A stretch of 64,000 nt of DNA from NCBI RefSeq assembly GCF_053078305.1, contig NZ_CP166879.1. One strand, 5' to 3'. Below, in pieces: positions 21,001 through 24,000 of the stretch. Positions within the stretch are counted from its first letter, which is position 1. The number at the start of each line of letters is the position of its first letter. Position numbers: made by a program.

Positions 21001-24000
21001 AGCCCCAGTAAACGGGCCATCTGCGGATAGAAAACATTACGCGCAGGGTGAGCTGGCGCACATATATTATAGATGTGTCCGCCTTTAGGTGCCTGTAACA
21101 ACAGAGTGATAGCGCCAATAACATCTTCTAAATGGACTAAATTAACACCATGTTCACCATCAGGCGCGGTTTTTCCGGCAAAGAAGCGTCCGGGATGACG
21201 TCCCGGTCCGACCAGCCCCGCAAGACGCAGAATATCGACCGAAGTACCGGGTAAATTGTGCAGCCAGTCTTCGAGTTCTTCTAATACTCGTCCACTGTTG
21301 GTCACCGGATTACGCGGGGTGGTTTCTTTCACCGTGCCTTGCGCGTCGCCATAGACAGACGTTGAGCTGGTAAAAATAATTCGGGGAATACGATGGGCCA
21401 GCGCGCTATCCACTAACTCTTGTACCGCTTGTAAATAGAACTCATCGCCGGGGCCGCTACGACGTGCCGGAAGCGTAATGACCAGCGCGTCGGCATCCAT
21501 CAGGGCATCCAGATCGTCAGAATCGCAAACTAACTCAGGCTCCATGCGAAGCAGATAGCTATCAATGCCACTCATTCGGGCCGCTTCGACACCATCTTGT
21601 GTGGTTTTACTCCCGGTGACTTGCCAGCCTCGCGCTGAAAGTGACATCGCCAGCGGCATGCCTAACCACCCTAACCCGACAATTGCGACCTTTTTCATCC
21701 GTTATCTCCTGATACACCTTAGATCTATAAGGCTACGCTAGCGTATCAAAACTGACAATTCATTCTATGAATGAAATCGAAACTGTTAGCAAATATACCA
21801 TTGCCTGATGCGCTCCGCTTATCAGTCCTACAAAAACATCAATATATTGAATTTACGCAACATTTGTAGACCAGATAAGGCATTCACGCCGCATCCGGCA
21901 GGAACAAAGCCCACTTTAGTTACAGAACACAATGTTCTTGAGGGTTTTAAAGACATATTTTCACGATTTCTTTTCTAACGTAGTCACTCCAGGCCCCCTC
22001 CTTTCCCCGCTCATTCATTAAACAAATCCATTGCCATAAAATATATAAAAAAGCCCTTGCTTTCTAACGTGAAAGTGGTTTAGGTTAAAAGACATCAGTT
22101 GAATAAACATTCACAGAGACTTTTATGACACGCGTTCAATTTAAACACCACCATCATCACCATCATCCTGACTAGTCTTTCAGGCGATGTGTGCTGGAAG
22201 ACATTCAGATCTTCCAGTGGTGCATGAACGCATGAGAAAGCCCCCGGAAGATCACCTTCCGGGGGCTTTTTTATTGCGCGGTTGATAACGGTTCAGACAG
22301 GTTTAAAGAGGAATAAGAAAATGACAGACAACACTCGTTTACGCATAGCTATGCAGAAATCCGGCCGTTTAAGTGATGACTCACGCGAATTGCTGGCGCG
22401 CTGTGGCATTAAAATCAATCTTCACACCCAGCGCCTGATCGCGATGGCAGAAAACATGCCGATTGATATTCTGCGCGTGCGTGACGACGACATTCCCGGT
22501 CTGGTAATGGATGGCGTGGTAGACCTTGGGATTATCGGCGAAAACGTACTGGAAGAAGAACTGCTTAACCGCCGCGCCCAGGGTGAAGATCCGCGCTACT
22601 TTACCCTGCGTCGTCTGGATTTCGGCGGCTGCCGACTTTCACTGGCAACGCCGGTTGATGAAGCCTGGGACGGCCCACTCTCCTTAAACGGTAAACGTAT
22701 CGCCACCTCTTATCCTCACCTGCTCAAGCGTTATCTCGACCAGAAAGGTATCTCTTTTAAATCCTGCTTACTGAACGGTTCTGTTGAAGTCGCCCCGCGT
22801 GCCGGACTGGCGGATGCGATTTGCGATCTGGTTTCCACCGGTGCCACGCTGGAAGCAAACGGCCTGCGCGAAGTCGAAGTTATCTACCGCTCGAAAGCTT
22901 GCCTGATCCAGCGCGATGGTGAAATGGAAGAATCCAAACAGCAGCTGATCGACAAACTGCTGCCCCGTATTCAGGGTGTGATCCAGGCGCGCGAATCAAA
23001 ATACATCATGATGCACGCACCGACCGAACGTCTGGATGAAGTCATCGCCCTGCTGCCAGGTGCCGAACGCCCAACTATTCTACCGCTAGCGGGTGATCAA
23101 CAGCGCGTAGCGATGCACATGGTCAGTAGCGAAACCCTGTTCTGGGAAACGATGGAAAAACTGAAAGCGCTGGGTGCCAGTTCGATTCTGGTCCTGCCGA
23201 TTGAGAAGATGATGGAGTGATCGCCATGAGCTTTAACACAATCATTGACTGGAATAGCTGTACTGCGGAGCAACAACGCCAGCTGTTAATGCGCCCGGCG
23301 ATCTCCGCTTCTGAAAGCATTACCCGCACTGTTAACGATATTCTCGATAACGTGAAAGCACGCGGCGATGAGGCCCTGCGGGAATACAGCGCGAAGTTTG
23401 ATAAAACCACGGTTACCGCACTGAAGGTGTCTGCTGAGGAAATTGCCGCCGCTAGCGAACGCCTGAGCGACGAGCTAAAACAGGCGATGGCGGTGGCAGT
23501 AAAGAATATTGAAACCTTCCACACTGCGCAAAAACTGCTGCCGGTAGATGTAGAAACGCAGCCAGGCGTGCGTTGCCAGCAGGTCACGCGCCCGGTCGCT
23601 TCAGTTGGGTTGTATATTCCTGGCGGCTCCGCCCCGCTCTTCTCAACGGTTTTAATGCTGGCAACTCCGGCGCGTATTGCGGGCTGTAAAAAAGTGGTGC
23701 TGTGCTCACCGCCGCCGATTGCCGATGAGATCCTTTACGCGGCGCAGCTGTGCGGTGTGCAGGACGTGTTTAACGTCGGCGGCGCACAGGCCATTGCCGC
23801 GCTGGCGTTTGGTACGGAATCTGTGCCGAAAGTGGACAAAATCTTCGGGCCGGGTAACGCCTTTGTCACCGAAGCGAAACGTCAGGTGAGCCAGCGTCTG
23901 GACGGTGCGGCGATCGATATGCCCGCAGGCCCGTCGGAAGTGTTGGTCATTGCTGACAGCGGCGCTACGCCGGATTTCGTGGCTTCTGATTTGCTTTCTC

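Follow-up and report, generated by a model that had tools for sequence, protein, structure and literature searches.

Transcription attenuation and hairpin-stabilised pausing of RNA polymerase both count the his operon leader among their founding examples. The attenuator of Salmonella enterica is the system for which the A–F alternative-helix model was formulated, and the version found in E. coli K-12 has been under study since the late 1970s; the tRNA-sensing regulation of his genes in Firmicutes is that of a T-box leader. We know of no repressor that acts at the his leader promoter. The trp, leu, thr, phe and ilv attenuators follow the same logic, combining a short ORF rich in cognate codons with a pause hairpin, overlapping antiterminator and terminator structures and a U-run (PMC1183508, PMC9291695). 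The his leader forms five overlapping helices from six segments (A–F), as against four segments in trp, and is distinguished from other enteric attenuators by its seven consecutive regulatory codons. Published descriptions give a 16 aa leader peptide with 7 His codons, a 180-nt leader and a 14-bp stem with a 5-nt loop (PMC10989985), and read-through of the K-12 leader, which is identical in sequence to that studied here, responds to charged tRNA-His (PMC10989985, PMC9291695).

The stretch of DNA analysed here (64 kb; the window) is E. coli chromosome carrying asn tRNA genes, yeeZ, the his operon and wzzB, followed by the O-antigen and colanic-acid clusters, and the his leader is a useful annotation anchor fixing its place on that chromosome. 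The intact element at 22125-22274 is almost certainly the attenuator through which translating ribosomes control transcription of the E. coli hisLGDCBHAFI operon. Sequence comparison showed positions 21993..22316 to be base-for-base the same as E. coli K-12 MG1655, with the same promoter, leader ORF, five helices, pause site, terminator and U-run, and the sole leader difference ahead of hisG is G22317 (C in K-12), 4 nt before the hisG ATG. The Rfam His_leader covariance model (RF00514) matched 22151..22274 over its full length (model positions 1-126 of 126), scoring 131.6 bits (E = 1.4e-21) where 49 is the gathering threshold, and the end of this match is the end coordinate, 22274, that the preliminary description had claimed. 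The leader region was found in 5423 of 5426 complete E. coli genomes, and RefSeq labels the same sequence in other E. coli genomes as hisL and 'His leader region'. The Rfam match, the identity to K-12 and the RefSeq annotation thus bear out the earlier claim of an intact his attenuator, and nothing found contradicts this explanation. Rfam covariance models of T-box families gave no match at or above their gathering scores over the whole 64-kb window. The leader and attenuator represent an already known textbook element in its ordinary, unaltered wild-type form, and this occurrence changes nothing in the established picture. One difference from K-12 lies further upstream, where the yefM-yoeB toxin-antitoxin genes present between yeeZ and hisL in K-12 are missing from the window upstream of 21993. 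The features of the leader region are as follows.

22057..22086, + strand, hisL promoter hisLp, read from the sequence and the same in K-12
22057..22062, + strand, −35 hexamer of hisLp, TTGCTT
22081..22086, + strand, −10 hexamer of hisLp, TAGGTT, after an 18 nt spacer
22125..22175, + strand, hisL leader peptide ORF, ATG at 22125, 16 codons plus TAG ending at 22175
22146..22166, + strand, seven consecutive His codons, CAC CAC CAT CAT CAC CAT CAT (CACCACCATCATCACCATCAT)
22167..22195, + strand, his pause element, exact match to the 29-nt RNA29
22159..22192, + strand, helix A:B, 11 bp, from the Rfam consensus structure and MFE folds
22175..22202, + strand, helix B:C, 9-11 bp, arms 22175-85 and 22191-202, from masked folds
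22193..22218, + strand, helix C:D, 9 bp with an 8-nt loop, from the Rfam consensus and folds
22208..22253, + strand, helix D:E, core of 8 bp (22208-15 and 22246-53) extended to 12 bp, from constrained folds
22237..22274, + strand, helix E:F, intrinsic terminator, 14-bp stem (22237-50 and 22256-69), 5-nt loop AUCAC, U-run to 22274

We infer that transcription starts at A22094, since only with this +1 do the 'DnaA boxes' 3 and 4 reported at +126..134 and +187..195 of the his leader map onto 22219..22227 and 22280..22288, and a leader RNA of the published 180 nt would then end at about 22273, inside the U-run (PMC10989985). When 21700..22400 was scanned for consensus promoters and terminators, neither hisLp nor the attenuator terminator was reported. 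The promoter was missed because its −35 hexamer fits the consensus at 3/6 positions only, and the terminator probably because a G-U/A-U extension of the stem uses up the U-run; both misses are limitations of the scan and not evidence of absence. Translation of 22125..22175 gives MTRVQFKHHHHHHHPD*, and this interval is annotated as hisL both in K-12 and in an E. coli record of 100% identity. The seven consecutive His codons ascribed to the leader peptide in the preliminary description are indeed present at 22146..22166, which is the one match to (CAY)x7 in the 64-kb window, whilst 0 of 100 shuffles contained any match; the run is also kept in 76 enterobacterial loci, these having been retrieved by that pattern. 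Immediately downstream, 22167..22195 is an exact copy of the hisPEC RNA29 scaffold sequence, RNA29 being the RNA used for cryo-EM of his-paused RNA polymerase (PMC5842316). The 3' end of the pause is U22195, with G22186 as G-10, U22195 as Y-1 and G22196 as G+1, and the pause hairpin is the inner 5-bp stem of A:B with an 8-nt loop (22167..22184). This corresponds to the published his pause, with a hairpin at -30..-11 and the consensus G-10 Y-1 G+1 (PMC9291695), and the hairpin lying 11 nt upstream of the 3' end together with these three bases characterises a Class I (hairpin-stabilised) pause.

The terminator reads AAAGCCCCCGGAAG / AUCAC / CUUCCGGGGGCUUU over 22237..22269, followed by UUUAUU, and its stem is G+C-rich. 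Its U-run ends at 22274, 46 nt from the start of hisG at 22321, so that the GC-rich hairpin and T-run previously proposed before hisG are confirmed. When 22229..22278 (E:F with flanks) was folded separately the energy was -36.8 kcal/mol (z = -10, 0/200 shuffles). The geometry of 14 bp and a 5-nt loop agrees with the published description (PMC10989985), and in K-12 the terminated leader is cut by RNase III at the E:F structure (PMC5371410). The leaders of S. enterica subsp. arizonae and diarizonae encode the same peptide (MTRVQFKHHHHHHHPD) and have identical stems A-F. The Salmonella leader differs from that in the window at the third base of His7, by A22198G and in its terminator loop (AUCAU rather than AUCAC), and it has a longer U-run (8 U, as against UUUUUUAUU in the window) and a different sequence between terminator and hisG.

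Folding of the whole leader gave an MFE of -68.4 kcal/mol (z = -8.5, 0/200 shuffles), and without constraint the RNA folded into A:B + C:D + E:F. When 22125..22167 or 22125..22173 was masked, corresponding to a ribosome on the His codons, and the transcript ended at 22256, it folded into B:C + D:E. The alternative helices were also stable by themselves (B:C, -12.1 kcal/mol, z -3.3, 0/200 shuffles; C:D, -12.7 kcal/mol, z -3.4; D:E, -16.7 kcal/mol, z -3.3, 0/200 shuffles). B:C is exclusive with both A:B and C:D, and C:D with both B:C and D:E, whilst D:E, with arms 22208-21 and 22240-53, takes up 22240..22253, which is most of the terminator 5' arm. The folds support two mutually exclusive helix sets, of which A:B + C:D + E:F is predicted to terminate and B:C + D:E to permit read-through because D:E sequesters the terminator 5' arm. 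The mutual exclusivity of hairpins on which the preliminary description had relied was therefore not refuted, B:C and D:E forming over masked His codons and having 35 nt in common with A:B, C:D and E:F. The MFE fold additionally pairs CACCAC at 22146..22151 with GUGGUG at 22217..22222 over a long range.

Co-transcriptional folding was approximated by a stepwise equilibrium model in which 12 nt are held in the polymerase. With RNA polymerase at 22268, this model gave B:C + D:E for the stalled-ribosome state and A:B + C:D for the untranslated state, and with polymerase at 22232 to 22262 it showed C:D displacing B:C in the stalled state. For a ribosome at the stop codon, before F emerges, D:E and C:D were near-isoenergetic (-24.6 vs -23.8 kcal/mol), and in the full-length equilibrium fold the terminator configuration was the MFE under every mask. 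Equilibrium folding alone, by full-length masks or the stepwise model, did not reproduce an on/off switch, so the decision must, as far as these models indicate, depend on how fast and in what order the helices fold, and the predicted his switch must be a kinetic one.

Conservation was assessed in 56 distinct leaders of other Enterobacteriaceae, phylogenetically related and taken from one-genome-per-species contigs; the retrieval pattern was His x7-Pro-Asp-stop and the sample is therefore confined to that family. Pairing of the terminating set was kept in 92% of cells as folded with non-conserved flanking pairs (A:B 100%, C:D 99.6%), and that of the read-through set in 97.6% (B:C 100%, D:E main helix 99.4%). 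The stems are nearly invariant in these leaders and variation falls in the loops. Among the non-coding positions 22176..22269, which lie outside the retrieval pattern, 14 of 23 unpaired but only 6 of 71 paired positions varied in at least 5% of sequences (Fisher p = 9e-7). One stem change, A22198G, is frequent (29%), and it keeps the pair in both C:D (A-U to G-U) and B:C (U-A to U-G). Compensatory covariation was absent from the 56 leaders with their near-invariant stems, in which only one terminating-set pair changes on both sides, as pairs do in shuffles; covariation is uninformative here because the stems do not vary. A divergent leader from 'E. coli' strain MEI4BO-21 (90% identity), checked for compensatory changes, had unchanged, identical stems and flanks resembling Kluyvera-type leaders. 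The comparative support for the predicted helices is one of conservation, with pairing kept and variation in loops, rather than of covariation.

The sequence features, the identity to K-12, the folding of mutually exclusive helices and their conservation are results of this analysis, and for the response to tRNA-His, pausing, the kinetic order in which the helices fold and the point of termination we rely on published work with the K-12 sequence, which is identical, and the Salmonella sequence, which is nearly so. On this basis, transcription would start at hisLp near 22094, and RNA polymerase, having transcribed hisL, would pause at U22195, held there by the nascent 5-bp pause hairpin (22167..22184). 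A ribosome translating hisL would melt this hairpin and release the polymerase, with transcription and translation then coupled. Where charged tRNA-His is plentiful, the ribosome would pass the seven His codons, reach the TAG at 22173..22175 and cover A and B; C would then pair with D, leaving E free for F, and the 14-bp E:F helix with its U-run would terminate transcription at about 22273 to yield a leader RNA of about 180 nt. Where it is scarce, the ribosome would stall on 22146..22166 and cover A only, allowing B:C + D:E to form, with the terminator 5' arm sequestered and read-through into hisG. In the absence of translation A:B + C:D + E:F would form and termination would be maximal.

Yao et al. 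(2023) give a different account of the same RNA, a 'DnaA-dependent riboswitch' in which the hisL stem-loop RNA is bound by DnaA at 'rDnaA boxes' and thereby steered towards the terminating fold. It is favoured by published genetic and RIP data on K-12, whose sequence is identical (PMC10989985), and the window has the two downstream DnaA-like boxes that the paper describes, which depart from TTWTNCACA at two positions each (22219..22227 and 22280..22288). However, at up to two mismatches TTWTNCACA occurs 1274 times in the 64-kb window against 1245 +/- 34 in shuffles, so that DnaA-box-like sequences do not exceed chance at this threshold, and with one such box per 50 nt the four boxes in about 250 nt are the chance expectation. 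Box 4 moreover comes after the terminator, where the sequence is not conserved among Enterobacteriaceae, and the authors' own term for the riboswitch is 'possible example' (PMC10989985). We regard a DnaA-dependent leader as unlikely. To our knowledge classical attenuation requires no protein factor, which also counts against DnaA dependence. DnaA, if it had a role, would supplement the ribosome-mediated switch and not replace it.

The leader is near-invariant across some 25 enterobacterial genera, and His codons 1-4, which lie outside A:B, hardly vary at their synonymous third positions. Some role in addition to the classical cis switch, very unlikely in our view, may lie behind this invariance, for example tuning of super-attenuation by the long-range helix 22146..22151/22217..22222 or a trans or protein-binding role of the 180-nt RNA (e.g. 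with DnaA or tRNA-His-binding proteins). That the terminated RNA of about 180 nt (22094..22273) also acts in trans, as an sRNA or sponge, besides its action in cis, seems highly improbable: the RNA is abundant, highly structured and builds up when rnc is mutated (PMC5371410), sponge activity is reported for other transcripts ended prematurely in E. coli 5' UTRs (PMC7815308), and the constraint on His codons 1-4 would fit such a role, but RNase III appears to clear the terminated his leader (PMC5371410), a literature search found no report of a trans role for the hisL leader RNA, and the need for each nucleotide to serve two pairings in addition to coding and pausing is explanation enough for the extreme conservation. 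There is next to no likelihood that the element senses nothing and acts solely as a constitutive intrinsic terminator or insulator, the short upstream ORF being there by chance. The E:F hairpin is present in every full-length equilibrium fold, as such a terminator would require, yet chance would not be expected to produce seven His codons in a row (0/100 shuffles), the element precedes a histidine biosynthesis operon that a constitutive terminator would silence in spite of its being needed by prototrophs, and the alternative helices overlapping the terminator arm are conserved and beat shuffles. Published genetics of the identical K-12 leader effectively refute a constitutive terminator.

Downstream of the ribosome-mediated attenuator lie the structural genes of the operon, in the same order and with the same junctions as in K-12 MG1655.

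22321..29354, + strand, hisGDCBHAFI, eight intact ORFs, with the same coordinates by RefSeq annotation transfer
22321-23220, + strand, hisG
23226-24530, + strand, hisD
24527-25597, + strand, hisC
25597-26664, + strand, hisB
26664-27254, + strand, hisH
27254-27991, + strand, hisA
27973-28749, + strand, hisF
28743-29354, + strand, hisIE

All eight products (hisG, D, C, B, H, A, F and IE) match NCBIfam equivalogs above cut-off. The preliminary description had all seven junctions overlapping, and this holds for six of them (hisD/C by 4 nt, ATGA; hisC/B, hisB/H and hisH/A by 1 nt each; hisA/F by 19 nt; hisF/I by 7 nt) but not for hisG/hisD, where a 5-nt gap (TGA TCGCC ATG) separates the end of hisG at 23220 from the hisD ATG at 23226. 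The translational coupling suggested from these junctions is nevertheless consistent with six overlaps and one gap of 5 nt. The same hisG/hisD spacing is found in the RefSeq annotation of K-12 and of strain 720632. An in-frame GTG at 23217 overlaps the hisG stop codon (GTGA) and may be what was originally taken as a hisG/hisD overlap. The ATG is favoured as the hisD start because the Shine-Dalgarno sequence GGAG (23214..23217) overlaps this GTG and stands 8 nt before the ATG.

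Scanned in full against Rfam, the window gave a full-length match to the His_leader family (RF00514) at 22151..22274, with a score of 131.6 bits (E = 1.4e-21; gathering score 49). By megablast with 21950..22330, 5423 of 5426 complete E. coli genomes carry this region, and its annotations in them read 'hisL: his operon leader peptide' and 'His leader region'. Alignment with E. coli K-12 MG1655 showed identity from 21993 through 22316, the sole difference before hisG being G22317 in the window, which is C in K-12. The eight ORFs downstream of the leader are intact and match the NCBIfam equivalogs HisG, D, C, B, H, A, F and IE above cut-off. 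The element is an intact, wild-type copy of the his attenuator already described from E. coli. The preliminary description had read it as a his attenuator at 22125..22274, limits that coincide exactly with the hisL start codon and the last base of the U-run, and this interpretation is supported by the RF00514 match, the K-12 identity and the mutually exclusive helices described below. The seven consecutive His codons and the GC-rich terminator hairpin with T-run before hisG that it had reported were found on reading the sequence.

Leader features
22125 (ATG) to 22173..22175 (TAG), plus strand: hisL leader ORF, 16 codons, translation MTRVQFKHHHHHHHPD and stop
22146..22166, plus strand: seven His codons, CAC CAC CAT CAT CAC CAT CAT
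22237..22269, plus strand: terminator hairpin AAAGCCCCCGGAAG-AUCAC-CUUCCGGGGGCUUU, then UUUAUU
22321, plus strand: hisG start ATG

A search for (CAY)x7 over the 64 kb of the window hit the His-codon run and nothing else; 100 dinucleotide-preserving shuffles gave no match at all. Few intrinsic terminators in E. coli are stronger than the one at 22237..22274; despite this, a consensus terminator scan of 21700..22400 reported no site, likely because extension of the stem by A-U and G-U pairs (GAGAAAG... with ...CUUUUUU) consumes the U-run.

Folding of the whole leader (22125..22280) gave an MFE of -68.4 kcal/mol (z = -8.5), equalled by none of 200 shuffles, in which six RNA segments, A to F, pair as A:B, C:D and the E:F terminator hairpin. 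To mimic a ribosome with its A site at His codons 3-5, the RNA was masked as far as 22167 or 22173 and the transcript was ended at 22256, ahead of synthesis of the terminator 3' arm; the MFE fold was then B:C plus the antiterminator D:E, which takes up 22240..22253, most of the terminator 5' arm. The terminating and read-through configurations have 35 nucleotides in common and are thus mutually exclusive, so the folding check proposed in the preliminary description does not refute its reading.

Alternative helices, with energy of each folded alone, z score and shuffles at least as good
A:B, 22159-64/22186-92 plus 22167-71/22180-84 (whole leader): -12.2 kcal/mol, z -1.9, 10/200
C:D, 22193-201/22210-18 (whole leader): -12.7 kcal/mol, z -3.4, 3/200
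E:F (whole leader): -36.8 kcal/mol, z -10, 0/200
B:C, 22175-85/22191-202 (masked): -12.1 kcal/mol, z -3.3, 0/200
D:E, 22208-21/22240-53 (masked): -16.7 kcal/mol, z -3.3, 0/200

As soon as F could pair, the terminating fold was the MFE under every mask, and in these models the switch is not reproduced by equilibrium folding on its own. A stepwise model that kept 12 nt inside the polymerase and solved the equilibrium at each RNAP position gave, at 22268, B:C plus D:E for the stalled-ribosome state and A:B plus C:D for the untranslated state. A ribosome placed at the stop codon left D:E (-24.6) and C:D (-23.8) nearly isoenergetic, and under stalling the equilibrium fold went through C:D between RNAP positions 22232 and 22262. 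Since the equilibrium models yield no on/off switch, the outcome must depend on order of synthesis and kinetics, control by which is assumed in the classical attenuation model; these would decide between the terminating and read-through folds. The 29-nt RNA used for cryo-EM reconstitution of the his-paused elongation complex, CCUGACUAGUCUUUCAGGCGAUGUGUGCU (PMC5842316), matches 22167..22195 exactly, so that the pause 3' end falls at U22195; G22186, U22195 and G22196 fit the G-10 Y-1 G+1 consensus, and the hairpin in the window falls at the -30..-11 reported for the pause hairpin (PMC9291695). The pause element is thought to synchronise polymerase with the ribosome translating the leader.

For comparison, one-genome-per-species contigs were scanned for a His x7-Pro-Asp-stop pattern, returning 76 loci, all from Enterobacteriaceae or related metagenome-assembled genomes; flanks were sufficient in 72, giving 56 distinct 161-nt leaders. 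Both configurations kept their pairing across these leaders. The terminating set was 92% paired as folded (A:B 100%, C:D 99.6%), the only missing pairs being non-conserved ones that flank the 14-bp terminator stem, and the read-through set was 97.6% paired (B:C 100%, main D:E helix 99.4%). No usable covariation was obtained across the 56 leaders, shuffles being equally good on every measure, because the stems scarcely vary. Within 22176..22269, a stretch that the retrieval pattern does not touch, 14 of 23 unpaired and 6 of 71 paired positions were variable (at least 5% of sequences; Fisher p = 9e-7, which overstates independence as the sequences are phylogenetically related), showing variation to be confined to unpaired positions. 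The sole frequent stem substitution, A22198G (29%), retains its pair in both C:D and B:C, as dual constraint predicts.

The synonymous third positions of His codons 1-4 (22146..22157) were nearly invariant in the 56 leaders though outside A:B, and the unpaired third base of His7 varied (T 44, C 12). The MFE fold pairs CACCAC (22146..22151) with GUGGUG (22217..22222), possibly an additional helix that encloses A:B and C:D when the leader is not translated. The Trabulsiella odontotermitis leader (NZ_LIFX01000011.1) has ten consecutive His codons rather than seven through an in-frame 9-nt insertion (CACCATCAT), the remaining attenuator being unchanged. In the E. coli-labelled soil isolate MEI4BO-21 (NZ_CM149565.1 1837944..1838670) the his leader and hisG start are only 90% identical to the window, the leader peptide begins MSRVQFK and the post-terminator sequence (GAACCAAATTCAG) resembles Kluyvera-type leaders; every attenuator stem is nonetheless identical, and the sequence suggests recombination or horizontal replacement at this locus.

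The hisL promoter, hisLp, is identical to that of K-12.
22057..22062, plus strand: -35, TTGCTT
22081..22086, plus strand: -10, TAGGTT

From published numbering (PMC10989985) we infer +1 to be A22094, which puts the end of the 180-nt leader RNA of that study at approximately 22273, inside the U-run. The same 2023 paper proposed a DnaA-dependent riboswitch for this leader, and its boxes 3 (+126..134) and 4 (+187..195) then fall on two-mismatch DnaA-box matches at 22219..22227 and 22280..22288. Such boxes are not distinctive by sequence alone, however: the window has 1274 matches to TTWTNCACA at two or fewer mismatches where chance predicts 1245 +/- 34. As an addition to attenuation the riboswitch has a low probability. 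A trans-acting role of the leader RNA is unlikely and finds no support. The terminated RNA seems to be removed by RNase III, which cuts in E:F (PMC5371410). A plain constitutive terminator cannot be squared with the run of His codons or the conserved alternative helices, nor with an operon that has to be expressed.

The preliminary description had also claimed overlapping stop and start codons at all seven his junctions. Six overlap, hisD/hisC (4 nt), hisC/hisB, hisB/hisH and hisH/hisA (1 nt each), hisA/hisF (19 nt) and hisF/hisI (7 nt), but hisG and hisD are separated by a 5-nt gap (TGA TCGCC ATG; stop 23218-20, start 23226), in agreement with the RefSeq annotation. The spacing, this gap included, is still compatible with translational coupling. 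An ORF-list extension starting hisD at GTG 23217, overlapping the hisG stop as GTGA, was disfavoured; GGAG at 23214..23217 overlaps this GTG and sits 8 nt before ATG 23226, which is thus the supported start.

Elsewhere in the window, K-12 homology breaks at approximately 21993 within the yeeZ-hisL intergenic region (21699..22124). The yefM-yoeB toxin-antitoxin pair, which lies between yeeZ and hisL in K-12, is absent, and the 427-bp spacer carries REP-like palindromes at approximately 21800..21905 in its place. Among the 5416 complete E. coli genomes with a match, 1193, one O157:H7 strain included, share this arrangement over at least 80% of 21600..22130; the remaining records among the matches listed carry yefM-yoeB. 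Three tRNA-Asn genes, all with the same Rfam score, fit what is expected of the E. coli asn tRNA gene cluster region. On the minus strand 3' of hisI (29453..~46250 and beyond) lie wzzB, ugd, gnd and the O-antigen gene cluster, followed by galF and colanic-acid genes; wzx and wzy are approximately 98% identical to 'O11 family' genes in NZ_LR536430.1.

Other RNA features
3406..3481, minus strand: tRNA-Asn (GTT), Rfam, 72.6 bits
5230..5305, plus strand: tRNA-Asn (GTT), Rfam, 72.6 bits
7638..7713, plus strand: tRNA-Asn (GTT), Rfam, 72.6 bits
19779..19853, minus strand: STnc240, enterobacterial sRNA, Rfam, 68.2 bits
46208..46246, minus strand: JUMPstart element (RF01707), ahead of the O-antigen genes
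52811..52881, plus strand: naRNA4, REP/BIME-derived nucleoid-associated RNA, Rfam, 79.7 bits
57270..57319, minus strand: 'algC RNA' motif (RF02929), Rfam
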